A stretch of DNA of 64,000 nucleotides. Source: an uncultured bacterium. Its GTDB lineage: Bacteria; Margulisbacteria; WOR-1; JAKLHX01. The notes beneath the pieces were generated by a model, which did not search any database, was not told where the DNA came from, and worked only from the letters and a program-made list of their open reading frames with translations. Location: the NCBI GenBank assembly GCA_964532225.1, contig CAZHHM010000003.1, forward strand, positions 30,005 to 94,004, written 5' to 3'. Of this stretch, positions 3,964 to 48,470 are shown one piece after another. Position 1 is the first letter of the stretch. Every line of letters starts with the position of its first letter. A program made the position numbers and the translations under genes.

Positions 3964-6060
3964 TCAGATCCTCATCGTGAGGTTGGTGCGGCCCTGGTCA
4001 TCTATCTCGGAAACCTTTACATCTACTTCATCCCCTAATTTGACGACATCTTCAACTTTATTCACCCTGTGGTTCGCAAGCTTTGAGATGTGGACCAGCC
4101 CGTCCTTGCCGGGAGCGATCTCTACGAATGCGCCGAAGTTCATGATCTTTACCACTTTACCTCGATAGATCTTGCCGACTTCGACATCCATTGCGATATC
4201 CTTGATCCTCTTTTCGGCTTCGGCAGCGGCTGCGCTGTCGGCCGATGTGATGAACACGTTCCCGCTGTCCTCTATATCTATCTGGGCCTTCGTGTCCTCG
4301 ATGATCTTCTTGATGTTCTTGCCGCCCGGGCCTATCACCAGACCTATCTTCTCGGTGTTAATCTTGAAGCTGATCACCCTGGGAGCGAATGTCGAAAGAT
4401 CCGTCCTCGGAGCAGGTATTGCCTCGAGCATCTTGCCGAGTATGAACATCCTGTCTTTCTTTGCCTGAGTGAACGTCTTTTCGACTACTTCCATCGGAAG
4501 CCCTTTGATCTTGATATCAAGCTGTATTGCGGTTATGCCGGCTTCAGTTCCGGTGATCTTGAAATCCATGTCCCCGAGGAAATCCTCAAGGCCCTGCAGG
4601 TCGGAAAGCACCTCGAACTTGCTGCCTTCTTTTACCAGGCCCATCGCCACGCCGGATACAGGTCTCTTTATCGGAACACCTGCGTCCATGAGGGCAAGGG
4701 TGCTTCCGCATGTGGAGGCCATGGAAGAAGAACCGTTCGATTCAAGGATCTCGGATACGAGCCTTATTGTATAAGGGAATTCGAGCTCATTCGGGATCAC
4801 CGGCAGCAATGCCTTTTCGGCAAGAGCTCCGTGGCCGATCTCTCTTCTGCCCGGACCTCTCAGAGGCCTTACCTCGCCTACGCTGTATGCAGGCATGTTG
4901 TAATGGTGCATATAACGCTTTTCGCTCTCTTCGGCGTCAAGGCCGTCGATTATCTGCGCATCGCCGACAGAACCCAGCGTAAGCACTGTCATTGCCTGTG
5001 TCCAGCCTCTTGTAAAGACCGCGCTTCCGTGAGCTCTCGGTATCATGCCGACCTCGCAGGTTATCTTGCGTACTTCATCCATTTTCCTACCGTCAGGCCG
5101 CCTGCCTTCGTTGATTATCATGTTGCGGACGAACTTCTTTTCGATCGATTTTACTATCGCCGCCGCATCTGACTTGTTCTCTTCGATAGCCTTTTTCAGC
5201 GCTTCGTCCGAAGAACCCTTGATCTTTTCGACAACTTCTCTCTCGATAAGGATCAGCTGGTCCTGCTGTTTTTCCTTGTCGACGATATTAAGGGCCTCTT
5301 TGATCTTTCCCGAATAGTTCTCAGAGATGAACTTTTCAAGGACAGCGTTCGGTTTGTACACATCGAAGGCCATTTTCGGCGTCCCGGCCTTTTTTACGAG
5401 CTCTTCCTGTACCTTGATCACCTCGGCGATCATCTTTTGACCGAACTTTATAGCTTCAAGGACCTTGGCTTCAGGCACTTCATTGCCTTTGGCCTCAATC
5501 ATCATGATCTCTTCTTTCGTCCCTGCTATAACAAGGTCAAGCTCGCTCTTGTCGATCTGCTCGTTGGTCGGGTTGGATATGAAAGCGCCGTCTATCAGGC
5601 CTACCCTGACGCAGCCGATCGGCCCTTCGAACGGGATATTTGATATTGAGAGCGCTGTCGAAGCGCCTATTACCGCTAGCACATCGGGAGGAGTCTCCCC
5701 GTCAACAGACAGCGGGGTCACTACTATCTGAACGTCATTGCGGAAGCCCTCGGGGAACAACGGCCTGATCGGTCTGTCGATCAGTCTTGAAGTAATTATT
5801 GCTTTTTCGGTAGGTTTGCCCTCTCTTCTGAAAAATCCGCCGGGTATCTTGCCTACAGCGTACATCTTTTCTTCGTAGTCAACGGTAAGAGGGAAGAAAT
5901 CGATCCCCTGCCTCGGTACTTCGGACCCCATAACGGTGGCAAGCACGACGGTATCGCCGCATCGCACCATTACCGAACCGGAAGCTTGTTTTGCGAGTTT
6001 CCCTGTTTCAAATGAGAAGGTCTTGCCGTCGATCGTAGCTGATAATTGGGTTATGTTCAT
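3964..6060 (-). CDS. pnp: Polyribonucleotide nucleotidyltransferase (PNPase)
   Basis: Two RNase PH domains ([26 protein letters not shown]) plus KH and S1 domains; ATGA overlap with rpsO. Confidence 0.98.
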
Positions 6061-7214: not shown

Positions 7215-8029
7215 CTTACGAAGATGGACCGGACAAAATAGGTCGCGTCCTTGATGTATTCCGATGCAGGCCAGAAAAGCAGCTGGGACAGGAGGAGCGT
7301 TCCGACTATCCTTCCGAGGACCACATAGAACACCATCGCCCTTACGTCCGATTCAGGTCGTTTGCCCCTTACGGCCTGGTCGGTGATAAAAGCAGCCGTC
7401 GGATCCACCATAAGAGCAAGAAGAATGGTCGCTATACCGTTCACTATTCCGGAGAGCTGGCTGGCCGTCGTCCTGAACTCCGGGACCTGCGCTCCCGCAT
7501 ACAATGACGAAAGGACGCCGATAGCATAGATCGAGACCATAAAGAAGTTCAGCACCAGAAAGGTCGTTGGCAGACCGTGCATCCTCATACCTTTTATCGT
7601 CTTGAGAGAAGGCAGCTTGAACGCAAGCATTATCTTCTTCATATTTGATGGTTTAACGGCCTCGATGAATAGTCTTGGTATGCTGCCGACCCTTTCGAAA
7701 ACATATATCGCCTTTTCGAACAAATGGACAAAGTACGGTATCAGCAGCGCGCCCAGAAGGTTGCCGATAAAAGCCGCAAATATCACTATCCTGAAATTGG
7801 CCGCGAGCTGTTCCGGGGTGTGATGGAGTATTGCCACATCGACCATGCCGCCCAGCAGAGGGGCCTGCAGCATGTTCGACATCCTGGCGATCAGAAAAGA
7901 AGTATTGACGAATGCAAGAGAAGTGGCCACCTGCTTAGTCCTGACCCCGGCAAGACGCATCGAGGACGCGAGAGTCTCGAAGAAATGTATTATCCCCGTA
8001 AGTATGCAGACAAGAACAAGGGCGCTCAT
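7211..8029 (-). CDS. amj: Amj-family (DUF2837) lipid II flippase
   Basis: Polytopic membrane protein with R.AGVRT, RMSNMLQAPLLG, QLSGIVNGIATILL..VDP and GTLLSQLL. Confidence 0.85.
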   Translation of the reverse strand: MSALVLVCILTGIIHFFETLASSMRLAGVRTKQVATSLAFVNTSFLIARMSNMLQAPLLGGMVDVAILHHTPEQLAANFRIVIFAAFIGNLLGALLIPYFVHLFEKAIYVFERVGSIPRLFIEAVKPSNMKKIMLAFKLPSLKTIKGMRMHGLPTTFLVLNFFMVSIYAIGVLSSLYAGAQVPEFRTTASQLSGIVNGIATILLALMVDPTAAFITDQAVRGKRPESDVRAMVFYVVLGRIVGTLLLSQLLFWPASEYIKDATYFVRSIFVR

Positions 8030-40940: not shown

Positions 40941-42421
40941 CTTTTCCCCCAAAGAACCTCTTTTGGGAACATATTATCCAGACCTAGAACGTTAGACGTA
41001 TCAAGGCGGGTCTTTAGGCCGGCCATTTCTTTTATGCCTTTATCCCCGTACATCTCTCTAAGAAACGCATGTTTTGTCTTTCCGATGCCGTGCTCCGCAG
41101 AGACGGTCCCTCCTAATGACAGCGCTTTGCGCACAAATTCGAGGTATATCCTCTTGACCTTCTCCTGCTCCTCCTGCGTACTTGGCAGCATATTCACATG
41201 GAAATGATTGTCACCGGCATGTCCGAATATCAGATGTGTCATTCCGGACTCTTCCAGCCTGTCACGGAAAAAATAGAACATCTCTTCGGCGCCTGTCTCG
41301 GGGACCGCAATATCCGTACCGGCTTTCGGATAGCCGTTCTTCTTCACGATTTCATTTACCAGTGCCGGAATGTCATACCTGATCTTTTTGAACCTGTTTA
41401 TCTTGTCATTCGTGTCAGCGAACCAGGTCTCGTCAAGCGAAGCTTTGTTCTTTTCAAGGATACGGCCCAGTTCTTCCAGATATCCGTCGCCTGTACCGGG
41501 CGATATCTCCTCTTCCAGGAATACGACCGATTCTGCCCATGCCGGGAGAGAAGGATGCCTTAACGAAAGAAGTTTGACGGCATTTTTGTCAAAATATTCC
41601 ATTGCAGCGGCGTTTAGACCTGTCCCGCGGCCCCGGTTCTTCAGCGATGCCTGCCTTATATCCTTCATGAACGATAAAGATGAAGGGATATCCCTGAAGA
41701 ACGCGAACACTGCCAGCAGATCATGCTCTTTTTTCAGAAGTCTGATATCCGCCTCAACAATACATGCCAATGTGCCCTCGCTGCCGATGAAGAGATCTAT
41801 GAGGTCCATTCCGTCCCTTGCGAAATACCCTGCAGAGTTCTTGATATCGGGCATCCTGTATCCGGGGACCCTGAAACTATTCAGCACAGGGACATCACAA
41901 AAGTCGCGCCCTTTTGAAATATACTTTCCTCTTGGAACATCAAGCATCTGACCGTCAACTGCTACCTTGAGCCTTTCGATATAATTCCTGGTAACTCCGT
42001 ATTTGAAGCTTCGCGCGCCGGAAGCGTTCGTTGAGATATTCCCGCCGATAAAGGAGGCGTCCTCCGTGGGGTCAGGGGGGTAGAAATATCCGTGGGCCTC
42101 GGCCGTTTCGTGAATATCCTTAAGAGATGTCCCGGAGCCTACCGTCATGACCGCGCCGTCTGTCGTTTTGCGAATGTCAGATATACTTTTGAACTGCTCC
42201 ATTGAAAGCACGCAACCGCCGAAAGGCACCCTTCCTCCCGTGGTGCCGGTCCCTCCGCCCGACAGGGTCAACGGGATTTTCTTTGCGGCATGAAAGGTGA
42301 TCAGGTCAGCGATCTCTTTTTCGTTTTGGGGGATATAGACCTTCGAGACATCCCTGCCTGCAAGCCCGGAACTGTCTTCAAGATACGGAGCGATATCCTG
42401 GGCAGATGTCTTTTCGATCAT
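40937..42421 (-). CDS. FAD-linked oxidase/dehydrogenase (GlcD / D-2-hydroxyacid dehydrogenase-like)
   Basis: GGGTG..GG, PPDP..S.IGGNISTNASG, FIGSEGTL, FGHAGDNHFH, SAEHGIG. Confidence 0.88.
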   Translation of the reverse strand: MIEKTSAQDIAPYLEDSSGLAGRDVSKVYIPQNEKEIADLITFHAAKKIPLTLSGGGTGTTGGRVPFGGCVLSMEQFKSISDIRKTTDGAVMTVGSGTSLKDIHETAEAHGYFYPPDPTEDASFIGGNISTNASGARSFKYGVTRNYIERLKVAVDGQMLDVPRGKYISKGRDFCDVPVLNSFRVPGYRMPDIKNSAGYFARDGMDLIDLFIGSEGTLACIVEADIRLLKKEHDLLAVFAFFRDIPSSLSFMKDIRQASLKNRGRGTGLNAAAMEYFDKNAVKLLSLRHPSLPAWAESVVFLEEEISPGTGDGYLEELGRILEKNKASLDETWFADTNDKINRFKKIRYDIPALVNEIVKKNGYPKAGTDIAVPETGAEEMFYFFRDRLEESGMTHLIFGHAGDNHFHVNMLPSTQEEQEKVKRIYLEFVRKALSLGGTVSAEHGIGKTKHAFLREMYGDKGIKEMAGLKTRLDTSNVLGLDNMFPKEVLWGKS

Positions 42422-42699
42422 TGTTCTATCTGGATCCAGCCCTCATGTTCAAAATGCCCCAGAAAATCATAGGATATCTTTGCTTTGTACCATTTTCCGT
42501 CCGCTGTGCGCCCTGTCACCTTGACCCCTATCGGGATATCGAACACTGAAGAGGCAGTAAGCGTCGGCGAAGAAAGGAGCCTTTTTACCGGGATATCGAG
42601 AGGAACGAATGCTTCGCCGCTGTCGGCGTAAGAAAGACCTGACAGGAGCACTGCCGTTGCCAGAACGGACATCAATCTGACCAAATAGCGTCTTGTCAT
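42418..42699 (-). CDS. Small exported protein, SH3b-like
   Basis: Signal peptide; G..V.VTGRTADGKWYK...EGWI resembles bacterial SH3; translationally coupled on both sides. Confidence 0.6.
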   Translation of the reverse strand: MTRRYLVRLMSVLATAVLLSGLSYADSGEAFVPLDIPVKRLLSSPTLTASSVFDIPIGVKVTGRTADGKWYKAKISYDFLGHFEHEGWIQIEQ

Positions 42700-44525
42700 T
42701 TGCCGTCTTCTTTAACGGACGCGTTTATATCGATCATCTCTACCCCAGGCATATATTCCCTGATAATCGGCTCGGAGATATGAGCCAGGTTCCTGAGTAT
42801 CTCTCTTATTCTTTTTGACTCGTCTGAGATCGTTGCGAGCTTTTCTTTTATCAGTGTCATGTCCGCCTCACTCCCAGACTCAAGCTTCATAAGCAGCCCC
42901 TGTGACTGCGCAAGAACGGTCGTCAGCGGGTTGTTTATCTCATGCTGCAGACTTACCGTGAGCTTTGTCAGAGTGGAAAGCCTTTCTGCTTTGACCAGCT
43001 CCTCCCTTGTCTCGATAAGCTCTTTGTTCATTTTTTCGAGCATGACCGTGTATTTTTCCCTGGCCTGGCCCTCAGCGATCTTTTTTGCCGTATCCTTTTC
43101 CCTCTCAAGCAGTATCGCGTTCTGTATGAATATCGCGTTCTGGTTGGCAAGCGTTGTCAGGAAGCTTAGGTCCTCGTCGGTGAACGGGGCCTTTGATGCT
43201 TTGTCGCTCAGGGCAAGGAAAGCGACAAGTTTTTCATTGTAGAGGCTGGGAACGACAAGCGACGCGTTCAGCCTCTGGAAATCCGCTACGATGGCTAACA
43301 GCCTGTCCTTATCCGAGCCCCGGCTGTCCTGAGCCTGCTTCTCGATATCATGCATCAGGATGAATTTTTTCTTGTCCTCCATGGCTTCGATTATCGCGAA
43401 GTTGGAGGAGATGGTGAAACATGTAAGGTCTTTGCACGTACCTTCGTTGCCTTTCACCTCGTATCGGTCCTTTTTTTCGTTGTAAAGAAATAGCGCCGCT
43501 CCGTCCAGCTTCATCCTGGACTTCAGTATCCTTGCGGTCAGCTTAAGAAGCCTGTCGATATCCGGCAGATAGCTCATAGCAGATGAAGTTTCCCTCAGGG
43601 TCTTCTCGTAATCGAATTTTGTCCTGAAAAGGATCTTGTCAACGGTCTCCTGGATCCAGTCCCTTAGGGTCTCGAATATGAACGCGAAAAAGAAGAAAAA
43701 GAATATCCCTATGAAGAAGGAATAACTGGTCAGCGTGTTCTGGAAATACCTGGCAAGAGCGAATATCAGTCCGAAATACGACCCCGTAACAAGTCCTGCC
43801 AGTATGAAGTATGCGATACTTTTTCCGAGTATCGCGTTAAAGCCCATGAACCTGAAACGAAGTATGGCGTATGTTGTGCTGAAGGTAAAAGCTATTGTTG
43901 AAAGCGGTCCCAGCGCATGGAAGATATGCCACCGGTACTCTATCCCCAATAACGGGATGACAAGATTGAACGTCCCTCCCACCACAAGAGGTACGAGCAA
44001 GCCTCCCAGGACATAGGTTATCTGGACCCTTTCGGTCCCGGTGTATTTGAAGAACTTGGATATGAGGATCCAGAAAGCTGCGGCAAAAAAGAACGTCAGG
44101 TAGATCAGAAGGAATATGTGAAAAGCAGTTATCCCTTCTGAGATCACATCCCCCGGGAGGAAAGAAACGCTCGAAAACGGAAGTTGTGTGGCAAGCAGGT
44201 ACGCAGATATCGGCGCAGGGAGAAATATCACCAGAGTTTCCATCAGACCGACAGGCTTGTCCTCTGGGAATACGAGAGAGAAGTAAAGCATCAGGGAAGG
44301 AACAAAAGTCACGGCCCCATAGCACATCTTAACCCCGTAAAAGAACATATCCTGATGTGATGAAACATGGAAATTCGCGATATATGCGAAAAATATCCAG
44401 ACCGCTGTCGAAAGAACGATAAGACCGAAAGACCGGTTTATCTTGCTGCCAAGGCCTTTGTAAAGCACGAATATCGCCAGGAGAAGGTTGGCCGCGATCG
44501 CCAGCAGATATATTAGGTGTATCAT
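42696..44525 (-). CDS. Membrane sensor: multi-TM N-terminus, GAF domain and HisKA/DHp, with no HATPase domain
   Basis: About 9 TM helices; GAF (SLVVPSLYNEKLVAFLALSDK..FTDEDLSFL.TLANQ); H-box HEINNPL; the protein ends roughly 70 aa later. Confidence 0.8.
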   Translation of the reverse strand: MIHLIYLLAIAANLLLAIFVLYKGLGSKINRSFGLIVLSTAVWIFFAYIANFHVSSHQDMFFYGVKMCYGAVTFVPSLMLYFSLVFPEDKPVGLMETLVIFLPAPISAYLLATQLPFSSVSFLPGDVISEGITAFHIFLLIYLTFFFAAAFWILISKFFKYTGTERVQITYVLGGLLVPLVVGGTFNLVIPLLGIEYRWHIFHALGPLSTIAFTFSTTYAILRFRFMGFNAILGKSIAYFILAGLVTGSYFGLIFALARYFQNTLTSYSFFIGIFFFFFFAFIFETLRDWIQETVDKILFRTKFDYEKTLRETSSAMSYLPDIDRLLKLTARILKSRMKLDGAALFLYNEKKDRYEVKGNEGTCKDLTCFTISSNFAIIEAMEDKKKFILMHDIEKQAQDSRGSDKDRLLAIVADFQRLNASLVVPSLYNEKLVAFLALSDKASKAPFTDEDLSFLTTLANQNAIFIQNAILLEREKDTAKKIAEGQAREKYTVMLEKMNKELIETREELVKAERLSTLTKLTVSLQHEINNPLTTVLAQSQGLLMKLESGSEADMTLIKEKLATISDESKRIREILRNLAHISEPIIREYMPGVEMIDINASVKEDGK

Positions 44526-44532
44526 TTACTCA

Positions 44533-44558
44533 ATTATACAGAAAAGTGATCATTTTTC
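44533..44558 (-). promoter_or_regulatory. TATAAT -10 box (7 nt before the sensor ATG) preceded by an 18-bp near-perfect palindrome
   Basis: attata at 44533-44538; gaaaagtgatcatttttc at 44541-44558. Confidence 0.55.
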
Positions 44559-45734
44559 CTAACTCTGCGAAATATCACAGGGGAGATCGTCCGCTCCGAT
44601 CATATCCCCTCTTGCCAGAACTACCGTCCTTTCGACTATATTGATCAGCTCCCTGATATTGCCGGGCCAGCGGTACCTGCAAAGGAGGTCAATAGCTTTC
44701 TGGTCAAAGCCTTTGACCTGTCTGCCGACCTTCTTATTGATCCTGTCAAGGAAGTATGAGATCAGTACAATAATATCCTCGCCCCTCTCACGGAGAGGAG
44801 GAACGTTCACCGGAATGACGTTAAGCCTGTAATAAAGATCATCCCTGAAAGAGCCTTTTAAGACCAGTTCCTTGAGATCGGCGTTAGTCGCACAAATGAC
44901 CCTTACGTCGACAGGGATGGTCTCAACGCCCCCTATCCTTGTGATCTCGCCTTCCTGAAGGACCCTTAATAGTTTTGCCTGCATACTTTGAGGAAGGCAT
45001 CCTATCTCGTCCAGGAATATCGTCCCGCCGTCCGCCAGCTCGAACTTGCCGGGCTTACGTTCGAACGCCCCTGTGAAAGCCCCTCTTTCATAACCAAAGA
45101 GCTCCGACTCGAACAAGGTCTCGGGGATAGCTGCGCAATTTATCGCGATGAACGGCCTTTCGGCCCTTTTGCTCCTTTTGTGCACTGATCTTGCGACCAT
45201 TTCCTTCCCGCTGCCGGTCTCCCCGGTTATCATCACGGAACTGTCTGAACGGGCTATTGCGTCGATATCTTTGAGGAGGGCCGTCATTTTTGGCGAGCCG
45301 CCGATCATATCATCAAATGTCTTCCCTACTATCGTGCGGAGAATGTTGTTGTCCCTGGCCAGTTCCTTTTTTTCTATGGCCTTTTCGATGACTATCCGCA
45401 GTTCCTCATCATCAAAGGGCTTTACCACGTAATCATAAGCGCCTGCCCTCATGGCAAGAGTTGCGGTCTTCGCATCGGACATCGCGGTCACCATGATCAC
45501 CACGGCATCGGAGCCTGTTAAGATTATTTTGTTGAGGATGTCGATGCCGTTAGTCTCGCCCATACGGACATCAAGGAGCACAACATCGGCCGATCTGGTC
45601 CGAATATGTGACAGCGCTTCTTCGGGGTCGCTGAAGGTCAGGACGTTGTACTCGTTCTTGAACAGGGCCTTAATGGCCCTCAGTATGCCCTGTTCGTCAT
45701 CGATAGCGACAACGGTATATTTCCGTTTTGCCAT
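44559..45734 (-). CDS. NtrC-family sigma54-dependent response regulator (REC plus AAA+) without a C-terminal HTH
   Basis: DDE, LLDVRM, KPF (REC); GETGSGKE, ESELFGYERGAFTGA, FLDEIG, WPGNIREL; stop follows DDLPCDISQS. Confidence 0.9.
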   Translation of the reverse strand: MAKRKYTVVAIDDEQGILRAIKALFKNEYNVLTFSDPEEALSHIRTRSADVVLLDVRMGETNGIDILNKIILTGSDAVVIMVTAMSDAKTATLAMRAGAYDYVVKPFDDEELRIVIEKAIEKKELARDNNILRTIVGKTFDDMIGGSPKMTALLKDIDAIARSDSSVMITGETGSGKEMVARSVHKRSKRAERPFIAINCAAIPETLFESELFGYERGAFTGAFERKPGKFELADGGTIFLDEIGCLPQSMQAKLLRVLQEGEITRIGGVETIPVDVRVICATNADLKELVLKGSFRDDLYYRLNVIPVNVPPLRERGEDIIVLISYFLDRINKKVGRQVKGFDQKAIDLLCRYRWPGNIRELINIVERTVVLARGDMIGADDLPCDISQS

Positions 45735-45750
45735 CAACCCTTTCCCGGGG

Positions 45751-47331
45751 TCAGATCTTTACCAGTTTTGCGCTAGTGACCCCTTCGATCTTGTGGATCT
45801 GTGCAAGAACACCTTCGGAGATCACATTGTCTATGTTAAGTACCATGACCGCTTTGCCTCCGATCGTCTCCCTGCCTACGTCCATTGAAGCAATATTGAT
45901 GCCGTTGTTGCCCAGAAGCGTCCCTACCTTGCCGATAATGCCGGGCCTGTCGGTATGGTTGGTTATCAGCATATACCCTGACGGGACGACGTCCGTATTG
46001 AACGAATCTATCCTTACCAGCCTCTCTCCGAAAGTACCAAGAACAGTGGCGGCCACGGTCCTTTTCTCTTTTTCTGTCGTTACCGCAACTGATATCAGGT
46101 TGGAGAAGTTCTCTGAATCTCCGCTCTTGATCTCTTTTATCGATATCCCGCGTTCTTTTGCGATGAGCGGCGCATTCACATGATTGATGCTGTCCCCCAA
46201 TGCACTCTCAAGTATCCCTTTAATAATGGCTATAGTTAGAGGAGAGTTGTCATTCTCGCAAAGCTCGCCTAGATATGATATCTCGACCGATAAGATCGGC
46301 CCGTTCACGATCTGCGACGCGAAACGTCCCAGTTTCTCTGACACGGGGAGATATTGCTTTACCGGCCCAAGCAGATGAGGCTTCATTGCCGGTATGTTCA
46401 CGGCCGCCCTTGCAGGCTCGCCTTTAAGGACATCGATTATCTGCTCAGCTACATCAACGGCGACATTTACCTGCGCTTCAACCGTTGAAGCACCGAGATG
46501 CGGGGTCGCTATCACGTTCTGGAGCTCGATAAGAGGATTTTCCGGCGCCGGCTCGACCTCGAACACATCGAGCGCCGCAGCGGCTACTTTCCCTGACACA
46601 AGCGCATCCTTGAGATCGGATTCGTCAACGATCCCTCCCCTTGCCACGTTGATGATCTTTACTCCGTCCTTCATTATGGCGAATTTGTCCTTATTGATCA
46701 TACGGGCGGTCTCTTTGGTCTTAGGAATATGGAAAGTGATGTAATCAGACATCTTAAGCAGGTCGTCAACGGGTTTCAGCTCAACTCCGAGCTTCTTTGT
46801 GTACTCCTCGTTAACAAAAGGGTCCGAAACTACGACCTTCATGCCTAGAGCCAGAGCGTAAGACGCTACACGGCTGCCGATCTTGCCAATGCCGACTATG
46901 CCCAGCGTTTTATTGTAAAGCTCCGAACCCATGAACTTGCCGCGGTCCCATTTCTTGGACTTGAGACTGGAACAAGCCTGAGGGATATTCCTTGAAAGGG
47001 CCATTATCATGGCAAACGTATGCTCGGCTGCTGCAATAGTATTGCCTTCAGGGGAGTTGACGACCACTATACCCTTTTTTGTGGCAGCGGGGACGTCGAT
47101 ATTGTCCACGCCCACTCCAGCCCTGCCTATGATCTTGAGCTTGTCCGCCTTTTCAATTATCTTTGCCGTTACCTTTGTCTCGCTGCGGACCATCATGGCA
47201 TCATACTGCCCGATACATTCGACAAGCTGGTCCTCCGTCATACCGGTCTTCACCTCGACATCAAAGCCGGCCTTCATTATCAGTTCTATGCCTTCCTTTG
47301 CGGCTTTATCCGCTATAAGGACCTTCATCAA
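45751..47331 (-). CDS. serA: D-3-phosphoglycerate dehydrogenase, long form with ASB and ACT domains
   Basis: GRAGVGVDN, GIGKIG, NVARGG, ALDVF, TPHLGAST.EAQ, HTDRPGIIG (ACT). Confidence 0.96.
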   Translation of the reverse strand: MMKVLIADKAAKEGIELIMKAGFDVEVKTGMTEDQLVECIGQYDAMMVRSETKVTAKIIEKADKLKIIGRAGVGVDNIDVPAATKKGIVVVNSPEGNTIAAAEHTFAMIMALSRNIPQACSSLKSKKWDRGKFMGSELYNKTLGIVGIGKIGSRVASYALALGMKVVVSDPFVNEEYTKKLGVELKPVDDLLKMSDYITFHIPKTKETARMINKDKFAIMKDGVKIINVARGGIVDESDLKDALVSGKVAAAALDVFEVEPAPENPLIELQNVIATPHLGASTVEAQVNVAVDVAEQIIDVLKGEPARAAVNIPAMKPHLLGPVKQYLPVSEKLGRFASQIVNGPILSVEISYLGELCENDNSPLTIAIIKGILESALGDSINHVNAPLIAKERGISIKEIKSGDSENFSNLISVAVTTEKEKRTVAATVLGTFGERLVRIDSFNTDVVPSGYMLITNHTDRPGIIGKVGTLLGNNGINIASMDVGRETIGGKAVMVLNIDNVISEGVLAQIHKIEGVTSAKLVKI

Positions 47332-48470
47332 AGCATCTCAAGCGCGGCAGCAACACCGGCGCCTTTTTTTACGTTGAAACCGATCTCAGCAAGTGACTTT
47401 TCGATGGCACCGAGCGCAGCTACCAGCTCCAGCTGGTCGACGTACCCCAGATGACCGATCCTGAACACCTTGCCTTTTAGCTCTTCCTGTCCGCCGGCAA
47501 GTACCACACCGAACTTTTCCCTGACTATCTTTCTCATCGCATCAGCATCTACTCCATCCGGAGGGAACACTGCGGTAACTGCTTTTGATGCCACACTGTC
47601 ATCAGCAAGAAGCTTAAGACCAAGGGCTTTCATGCCGGCCCTTGCAGCTTTCTGCATCTTTTCGTGTCTTGCGAAAATGTTCTCCAGTCCTTCCGCCCTT
47701 ATCATCTTTATCGATTCCTGCATCCCGTAAATTACCGAGAGGGCCGGCGTCCACGGGGTCTCCCCTTTCTCGGCGAATTTCATGGCTTTTTGGAGATCAA
47801 AGTAGAAACGCGGGCATTTCGCCGTCTTATTCGCTTCCCATGCTTTCTTGCTGACAGATATAAAAGCAAGTCCTGGAGGCACCATGAAAGCTTTCTGTGA
47901 TCCGGATACGACCACATCAAGTCCCCATTCATCCGTCTTTAGCGGGGCCGTAAGCAGCCCGGAGACCGCATCAACAACGATGAGAGCACCGTGCTTCCTT
48001 ACGATCTCAGAGATCTTCTTTACGTCGTTAAGTACTCCGGTAGATGTCTCGTTGTGCTGGAACATCACGCCTTTTATGGCCTTAGCTTTGTCAGCGTTCA
48101 GGGTCTCTTCGAGCTTTGCAGTATCCGCCGCCTTGCCGCGCTCTGACTTGATCTCGATCACGTCAAGACCGTAAGCTTTTGAAATATTGATGAACCGCTG
48201 GCCGAAAGCCCCGATATTCAGCACGACGACCTTGTCGCCGGGCGAAAAGAAATTGACCACTGCCGTTTCCAGACCTCCAGTACCTGAGCTCGTCAGGACC
48301 ACCAGGTCGTTCTGCGTCTGGTATGACCATTTGACACCGTCGACTATCTCGCCGAACATCTTTGAGAACGAAGGGCCTCTGTGGTTAATCATCTGTTTCG
48401 CTGAAGCTGAAAGTATGTTGACCGGGACAGGGGTTGGGCCTGGGATCATCAGATATTCTTTAAAAGCCAT
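47328..48470 (-). CDS. Class V PLP aminotransferase (serine-pyruvate/alanine-glyoxylate type; probably fills the SerC role)
   Basis: MIPGPTPVP, HNETSTGV, DAVSG, SGSQKAF (PLP Lys), FRIGHLG; coupled to serA. Confidence 0.88.
   Translation of the reverse strand: MAFKEYLMIPGPTPVPVNILSASAKQMINHRGPSFSKMFGEIVDGVKWSYQTQNDLVVLTSSGTGGLETAVVNFFSPGDKVVVLNIGAFGQRFINISKAYGLDVIEIKSERGKAADTAKLEETLNADKAKAIKGVMFQHNETSTGVLNDVKKISEIVRKHGALIVVDAVSGLLTAPLKTDEWGLDVVVSGSQKAFMVPPGLAFISVSKKAWEANKTAKCPRFYFDLQKAMKFAEKGETPWTPALSVIYGMQESIKMIRAEGLENIFARHEKMQKAARAGMKALGLKLLADDSVASKAVTAVFPPDGVDADAMRKIVREKFGVVLAGGQEELKGKVFRIGHLGYVDQLELVAALGAIEKSLAEIGFNVKKGAGVAAALEML

Follow-up and report, generated by a model that had tools for sequence, protein, structure and literature searches.

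What use can a bacterium make of a membrane sensor that keeps the phospho-acceptor histidine of a signalling kinase, without the part of the kinase that uses ATP? This question is raised by a locus of an uncultured bacterium of the Margulisbacteria (WOR-1), located in a stretch of 64,000 nucleotides (GenBank contig CAZHHM010000003.1, positions 30,005 to 94,004), which is the window of this study and to which coordinates refer unless a contig or locus is named. The sensor gene lies at 42696..44525 on the (-) strand and encodes a protein of 609 amino acids (aa) that lacks a catalytic (CA) domain. It could be imagined that such a gene is a broken kinase, the half of a split kinase, or a protein with a role of its own. 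The answer appears to lie in the family to which the sensor belongs, and in what has happened to its operon in this particular genome.

Domain organization of the sensor

On the basis of the open reading frame (ORF), Pfam, the orthologues and an AlphaFold2 (AF2) model, the protein has a 7TM-GAF-DHp-tail organization (7TM, seven transmembrane helices) and belongs to subfamily A of the family described below. All of its parts are encoded on the (-) strand. The membrane region comprises approximately residues 1-300 (43626..44525) and consists of a HisKA_7TM domain (PF16927, residues 6-227; 34.8 bits, cutoff 28.6) and two further helices; in the AF2 model, helices extend to residue 299. It is followed by a GAF domain at residues 322-465 (43131..43562; PF01590, 33.1 bits versus a cutoff of 22.4), which resembles solved GAF structures in Foldseek, for example 3ci6 with a TMt of 0.74. 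The signalling helix and the DHp hairpin occupy residues 450-591 (42753..43178), with H528, E529 and N532. Here the HisKA match (PF00512, residues 524-581) scores 28.0 bits, barely over the gathering cutoff of 26.9. The H-box QHEINNPL corresponds to codons 42924-42947, with the CAT codon of H528 at 42942-42944. Finally, the protein terminates in ...EYMPGVEMIDINASVKEDGK, and its C-terminal tail PIIREYMPGVEMIDINAS(VKEDGK), encoded at 42699..42770, is a vestige of the linker between DHp and CA and of the first CA strand, as suggested by alignment.

HATPase_c (PF02518) was not found in the protein, even with the Pfam threshold relaxed to E<=1. The AF2 model, in which transmembrane helices up to about residue 300 are followed by a GAF fold, is in agreement with this. 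A continuous long helix (450-549) and a second helix (556-591) represent the signalling helix running into the DHp hairpin, residues 593-609 form a disordered tail, and there is no alpha/beta CA domain. The model has a mean pLDDT of 77.5 and was built on 19 homologues; structure prediction in this work concerned single chains. When the model was compared with the PDB by Foldseek, the GAF domain alone was confirmed, and sequence and fold searches of the PDB together yielded GAF and generic DHp matches and nothing else. Measured against a canonical HisKA-type kinase, the sensor thus has the DHp domain with its phospho-acceptor histidine (H528 in HEINNPL), and the catalytic domain with N, G1, F and G2 boxes is missing. 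Since there is no CA domain, it falls outside the definition of a class I kinase, and without an ATP-binding domain it is unable to autophosphorylate alone.

A first, sequence-only reading of this gene had described a multi-transmembrane N-terminus, a GAF domain and a DHp helix with HEINNPL not followed by an ATPase domain, and had predicted that a domain scan would find HisKA and no HATPase_c. This description was right in every point, and the loss of autophosphorylation that it deduced is borne out by the missing domain. The same reading had considered a frameshift unlikely, pointing to the stop codon that overlaps the start of the next gene; indeed, the TGA of the sensor and the following ATG are fused as ATGA at 42696-42699. 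In a tblastn search for remnants of a CA domain, the DHp+CA portions of three complete kinases encoded in orthologous operons served as queries. The match in the window was restricted to the DHp domain (42786-43031), and no CA remnant was present in any frame across the whole 64 kb. Furthermore, the orthologues are equally devoid of HATPase_c, and the sensor is therefore not a frameshifted pseudogene.

A family of sensors without catalytic domain

Each of the nine relatives from the same order has orthologues of the sensor in its genome. These orthologues are 38-57% identical to the sensor and mostly 597-617 aa long, with two of 411 aa, and the CA domain is absent from every one of them. A word-indexed search likewise returned full-length homologues of 600-617 aa with 38-54% identity, none with HATPase_c, several of which bear the source names Candidatus Margulisiibacteriota or Saganbacteria. 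In whole-genome searches, at least one CA-less copy was found in 10 out of 10 genomes of the order to which the window belongs, and not in any of 31 genomes from other parts of the class. An exhaustive search of representatives revealed further CA-less members on metagenome contigs.

The family can be defined by a HisKA_7TM N-terminus, an H-box HEINNPLT and a tail motif located approximately 5-30 residues from the stop (regular expression [EDK][YL][ML]PG.xM[IL][DE][IL]), and the sensor of the window has all of these elements. Alignment and tree distinguish three clades or subfamilies, A, B and C, in which the window's sensor belongs to A, as sister to the copy of the related genome G004 (support 100/99). 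LQHEINNPLT is invariant throughout subfamilies A and C, and the proteins of both end in the tail REYMPGV(E/D)MID(I/L), the signature tail of the family being REYMPGVEMIDI. In subfamily B, there is no tail, most members have N, Q, R or K in place of the histidine, and the Asn at +4 is changed. The sequence-only reading had proposed to verify whether homologues share the C-terminus and the neighbour: the adjacent regulator is present in the operons of the relatives and the tail in subfamilies A and C, but subfamily B is without it.

The tail motif was matched by 12 clusters, all 12 of them CA-less, and by none of the 110 CA-bearing proteins among the top 150 relatives. After DHp helix 2, complete kinases continue as '...F(A/G)(R/K)xxxPxxxx(V/I)D(I/L)Nxxi...', and the tail aligns with '..KPKFEDIDINTVIE..' in a complete kinase of the window's own genome. 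As far as can be judged from this alignment, the tail is the DHp-CA linker of a kinase together with its first CA strand; because MIDIN aligns with that strand, the proteins of the family would end a few residues after it. The family lost its CA domain long ago and has kept the phospho-histidine box as well as the HisKA phosphatase motif (H528, E529 and N532 in the window's sensor).

Some variants of this organization deserve to be mentioned. The subfamily B paralogues at loci L008 7842-9653, L037 11743-13572 and L041 8053-9846 are intact genes, each situated between two histidine-bearing paralogues, and can be considered as candidate true pseudo-sensors. In the sister family (genomes G008 and G009), the sensors of 411 aa (L039 8870-10105 and L040 8441-9676) have lost most of the 7TM region and kept GAF domain, H-box and tail. 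The sole signalling neighbour of a distant family member at L042 is a single-domain receiver, and another distant member has no signalling neighbour whatsoever. Family members therefore seem able to work with unlinked partners, and these two cases agree with both main readings of the sensor's role discussed below.

The operon in related genomes and the losses in the window

In the nine relatives (loci L008/L036, L011, L016, L018 and L037-L041), the operon has the order serC, serA, response regulator, one to three CA-less sensors, a complete 7TM kinase and a small protein, and is often followed by a convergent gene for a single-domain receiver. The regulator (446-453 aa) is composed of a receiver (REC) domain, a sigma54 AAA+ domain, a lid and a helix-turn-helix (HTH) domain of the HTH_8 type. 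The kinase (465-686 aa) has HisKA_7TM, a HisKA domain with 'HEIKNPL', and HATPase_c. Since such a complete kinase adjoins the CA-less sensor in all nine relatives, the normal mode of the family is probably joint work with a real kinase.

The window is the only exception. Of these genes it retains serC, serA, the regulator, a single sensor and the small gene, which, in the absence of the complete kinase, is translationally coupled to the sensor itself. The response regulator gene (44559..45737, (-) strand) encodes REC with D56, the sigma54 AAA+ domain with GAFTGA, and the lid. As derived from Pfam and from alignment with six orthologues, the protein stops just after the AAA+ lid, so that the HTH_8 domain of about 55 aa found in the aligned orthologues is lacking. 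D13/D14, D56, K106, Walker A/B and GAFTGA are all kept, and a search through all frames of the 64-kb window revealed no remnant of HTH_8. The receiver-only gene of the relatives is also without a clear orthologue in this genome, the best match being 42% identical versus 46-76% among orthologues. Both deletions are clean: the frames, the spacer of 33 nt between regulator and sensor, and the ATGA coupling are preserved. Taken together, the comparison of the operons indicates that in the genome of the window the operon kinase is deleted, along with the DNA-binding domain of the regulator.

Transcription signals differ as well. In four of the five relatives compared, the spacer holds a promoter TTGAC-N17-TATAAT, the -35 of which overlaps the stop codon of the regulator gene (L016 6952-7006, L018 4654-4708, L011 5951-6006 and L041 8004-8058). 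In the window, the spacer upstream of the sensor ATG (44526..44558, (-) strand) keeps TATAAT, and the -35 TTGAC was lost along with the HTH-coding region. Promoters of the sigma54 -24/-12 type were not found within two mismatches near the operon, either in the window or in the nine related loci.

In Helicobacter or Chlamydia, a response regulator without HTH domain serves as the sole sigma54 activator. The idea that the regulator of the window has lost its HTH domain for the same reason was rejected, since strong sigma54-activator genes number at least three in this genome. An apparent disruption of the regulator in the sister genome G004 was dismissed as well, being due to masked runs of N and not to decay. 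Such runs lie within the regulator genes of L010 (~5600-5690), L011 (~5400) and L041 (~7960-8010), and there are no frameshifts.

Search for the kinase elsewhere in the genome

The genome of the window is a metagenome-assembled genome (MAG) of 1.6 Mb in 44 contigs, 99% complete, with 13 strong HATPase_c matches. An orthologue of the operon kinase was not found elsewhere in it, and two candidates on contig C6 were rejected. The product of C6:450-2357 (635 aa) is 29% identical. That of C6:6000-8108 (702 aa) is matched by the operon kinases of the relatives at 25-28% identity and has orthologues of 40-46% identity elsewhere in each relative. Because both have better orthologues elsewhere in relatives that keep the operon kinase, neither is a relocated copy of it. 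A tree based on the CA domains of the kinases was poorly resolved.

Neither a stand-alone CA or HATPase protein nor any other CA-only partner was found in the assembly. With the exception of a fragment at C6:1-453, all CA matches fall in ORFs of 482-1355 aa, and this fragment of 150 aa is the end of a gene whose remainder lies beyond the contig edge. At least five CA-bearing kinases of the genome are of the same DHp-CA type (with HEI[KR]NPL as H-box where scanned), and four of these have input regions of the 7TM or GAF kind that resemble the sensor's. As a side observation, C6:1-8108 (genome G000; L002, L004, L006 and L012) carries four histidine-kinase genes in tandem, starting at the contig end, with products of 150 aa (the edge fragment), 635, 482 and 702 aa.

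Selective constraint on the sensor

Whether the sensor of the window is degenerating was judged from the tree and the alignments. Its terminal branch measures 0.34, versus 0.56 for that of the sister G004, which still has the kinase. In a leave-one-out comparison, the sensor of the window changes 11 of the 143 columns (7.7%) that are invariant in the other members of clade A, and the sister changes 27 of 159 (17%). The 11 changes are mostly conservative, and none affects the H-box or the tail. Furthermore, the pairwise identities of sensor, response regulator and small protein to their orthologues are within the range observed among the other genomes. Short branch, few altered columns and normal identities together argue for continued purifying selection, and in these alignments the window's copy gives no sign of decay or relaxed constraint.

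Possible roles of the sensor

The functional steps proposed here are deduced from sequence and genomic context. Ancestrally, the CA-less sensors would have been accessory input modules for the kinase and the regulator of the operon, as heterodimer partners, as trans-phosphorylated histidine carriers in the manner of FasC, or as opposing phosphatases. In the genome of the window, where the kinase is gone, we consider the sensor as a signal-gated phosphatase or reverse-phosphotransfer partner for the adjacent response regulator, with a probability of about one half. Its DHp dimer would most likely dock the adjacent REC-AAA+ protein, and the 7TM and GAF inputs would gate either the removal of phosphoryl groups from the regulator, by the H-E-x-x-N phosphatase, or their acceptance back onto the histidine. 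The phosphate on the regulator would come from paralogous 7TM-GAF kinases or from acetyl phosphate, which should be available since the genome encodes the acetate kinase AckA. In sum, an activator that does its work without binding DNA would be braked or buffered under control of the signal.

The phosphatase part of this proposal leans on the residues around the histidine. An acidic residue directly after the histidine and a Thr or Asn at +4 genetically separate kinase and phosphatase function (PMC3510030, PMC3591291), and 'HE/DxxN/T' is regarded as the signature of phosphatase-competent HisKA domains (PMC3591291). The motif H-E-x-x-N is intact in the sensor: in H-E-I-N-N, both the Glu and the Asn at +4 correspond to it. 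The sequence-only reading had already proposed a phosphatase, a phosphate sink, a phosphotransfer partner for the adjacent receiver protein, or phosphorylation in trans. As a whole that interpretation is partly supported, its missing context being the complete kinase that lies adjacent in the relatives.

Several observations weigh against a phosphatase or phosphotransfer partner of the adjacent regulator. The DHp specificity residues at H+11 and H+12 are A-Q in the CA-less sensors, versus G-L, A-L or G-M in the operon kinases, and therefore the sensors may serve a different receiver. The joint loss of the kinase, the HTH domain and the REC-only gene could mean that the system as a whole is in the process of being lost. 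The tail has remained perfectly conserved though the CA domain that was its presumed partner is gone, which fits a recent loss or a different function of the tail. Finally, the assembly is in 44 contigs, and the kinase fragment at the contig edge (C6:1-453) is not assignable.

The strongest alternative, although one that we hold only tentatively and consider clearly less probable, is that the sensor contributes the histidine to a kinase that is functionally split or heterodimeric. The CA domain would come from an unlinked paralogue, for which the 7TM-GAF kinases on contigs C6, C1 or C2 are candidates; this paralogue would heterodimerize with the sensor or phosphorylate H528 in trans, and the sensor would act as a positive phosphodonor of the regulator. 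The strict conservation of the histidine box and the resemblance of the tail to a docking remnant of the CA linker would be accounted for, and the same-type kinases mentioned above, four of them with 7TM or GAF inputs, offer possible partners. Split kinases are known in nature (PMC3591291), the FasB/FasC and ChrS/HrrS heterodimers provide experimental precedents, and the orphan members of the family elsewhere must also have unlinked partners. However, the paralogous kinases are just 23-31% identical to the sensor, and a CA-only protein is absent from the assembly. Each paralogue moreover has its own orthologues in relatives that still hold the operon kinase, and therefore none of them is a dedicated replacement.

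Related to this is a more specific and somewhat more doubtful suggestion: the disordered tail may be a docking motif by which the sensor borrows the CA domain of another polypeptide, so that the family would represent a natural, membrane-bound, multi-input split kinase. If so, the relatives would possess 'one kinase engine, several plug-in sensors', with up to three sensors sharing the kinase of the operon, and in the window's genome and for the orphan members an unlinked paralogue would provide the engine.

It is unlikely that the remaining genes are a relic, no longer functional after the losses of the kinase, the HTH domain and the REC-only gene, in which disabling mutations are still to come. 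Three independent losses have occurred in one system in the genome of the window only, and the -35 of the internal promoter, present in four of the five relatives compared, has been lost as well. Nevertheless, all three remaining ORFs are intact and both deletions are clean, with frames, spacer and ATGA coupling preserved; the sister has the longer terminal branch, and the few altered invariant columns spare H-box and tail. Even less probable is a regulator independent of phosphorylation, in which DHp and tail sequester or release the REC-AAA+ protein or another partner in response to membrane and GAF signals. In several genomes, the genes of the histidine-degenerate subfamily B have remained intact, from which it follows that DHp proteins without the histidine are still of use, and pseudokinases such as DivL are precedents (PMC4211667). 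Subfamily A, on the other hand, keeps H, E and N invariant at an overall identity of approximately 35-50%, which is hard to explain without histidine chemistry. An artefact, that is, an assembly deletion or the recent truncation of a normal kinase into a pseudogene, is highly improbable: the source is a MAG and both deletion junctions are known from the assembly alone, but the C-terminus is the native, family-wide end and no truncation point, the window holds no CA remnant, and the locus (C3:72703-74529 of 97395) places the junctions approximately 23-25 kb from the nearest contig end.

Other genes of the operon

The first two genes of the operon in the window are serC (47328-48470) and serA (45751-47331). 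The last one (42418..42699, (-) strand) encodes a small secreted or membrane-anchored protein of 93 aa that is 36-51% identical to the product of the last gene in the relatives, where it is 88-103 aa long and has an N-terminal hydrophobic helix. This protein always closes the operon, belongs to no Pfam family, and carries at its C-terminus a motif of three strands (..WYK.K.SY.F.G..E.EGW..); the AF2 model obtained for it is of low quality (pLDDT 60.7). Possibly it assists the 7TM sensors as an extracytoplasmic accessory. In the relative G007 (L008 1-1293), a reverse transcriptase gene follows a bAvd-like gene just upstream of serC, a combination that looks like a diversity-generating retroelement.

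Comparison with known systems

The closest experimental parallel is found in the FasBCA system of group A Streptococcus. FasC cut down to its transmembrane and DHp parts (residues 1-286) fully complements a fasC mutant; its DHp histidine H246 is required, FasB supplies DHp+HATPase, and the evidence favours a heterodimer (PMC12675982). As in the operons of the family, the genes of a membrane protein resembling a sensor kinase and of a second kinase-like protein lie in tandem. However, FasC still encodes a dispensable HATPase-like domain, which is deleted in the family described here, and kinase and regulator are of another class (the regulator FasA is ComE-like). An adjacent CA-bearing paralogue, as in the pair FasB/FasC, accompanies the orthologues and is absent from the window.

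A second parallel is ChrS of Corynebacterium glutamicum. A variant with a frameshifted CA domain has a phenotype unlike that of a chrS deletion, and the regulator of ChrS is phosphorylated by the paralogue HrrS, which heterodimerizes with ChrS (PMC9491836). A CA-truncated sensor thus still shapes the response, as is proposed for the window's genome. In contrast, the ChrS variant arose in laboratory evolution and represents no conserved natural family, and it has neither 7TM/GAF inputs nor a conserved tail.

Proteins of this general domain composition have been counted before. In a census based on SMART, 3.66% of HisKA proteins are without HATPase and 1.7% keep HE/DxxN/T (PMC3591291), and a preprint based on P2CS (10.64898/2026.02.27.708494) uses the category 'incomplete HKs' (iHK). 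The sensor has the domain content of 'HisKA without HATPase', including the HE/DxxN/T motif. That category is a heterogeneous bin to which no particular family, context or mechanism is attached, whereas the proteins described here form one clade, recognizable by its signature tail and its conserved operon. In CheA3/CheA4 of Rhodobacter sphaeroides, the histidine and the phosphatase are on one protein and the catalytic domain on the other (PMC3591291). The free histidine carrier acts as the phosphatase there, a parallel to the role proposed for the sensor, but it is the HPt P1 domain of a CheA and not a DHp, and its partner has no histidine of its own, whereas the partner in the relatives is a complete, self-sufficient kinase.

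The DHp domain of EnvZ ('domain A') can, as an isolated dimer, be trans-phosphorylated by a separate CA domain and dephosphorylates its regulator. This in vitro split is mentioned in PMC3591291. Domain A is likewise an isolated HisKA DHp, but an engineered fragment of a normal kinase. Spo0B and ChpT are soluble proteins with a DHp and a degenerate, CA-like alpha/beta domain, which act between two phosphorelay receivers. The sensor of the window, on the contrary, is anchored in the membrane, nothing resembling a CA domain follows its DHp, and the operon encodes no hybrid kinase. The best architecture matches in NCBIfam are PrsK and PrsR (TIGR02916 and TIGR02915, associated with PEP-CTERM), a multi-transmembrane, GAF and HisKA sensor with a REC-sigma54 activator; the sensor scores 32 bits versus a cutoff of 300 and the regulator 413 versus 503, and PrsK has a CA domain.

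In the literature searched, the family itself (7TM-GAF-DHp with the tail), the tandem arrangement of its members with a single complete kinase, the tail-less paralogue clade in which the histidine is mostly decayed, and the natural partner-deleted state all appear to be undescribed. HisKA proteins without an ATPase domain amount to a few per cent of all HisKA proteins and are mostly treated as annotation noise. A clean natural family, together with a genome in which the partner is deleted and the sensor remains under constraint, offers ready material for comparison. With it one can examine if these proteins work as phosphatases, as trans-phosphorylated kinase halves or as scaffolds, and in what way multiple membrane inputs converge on a single sigma54 activator.

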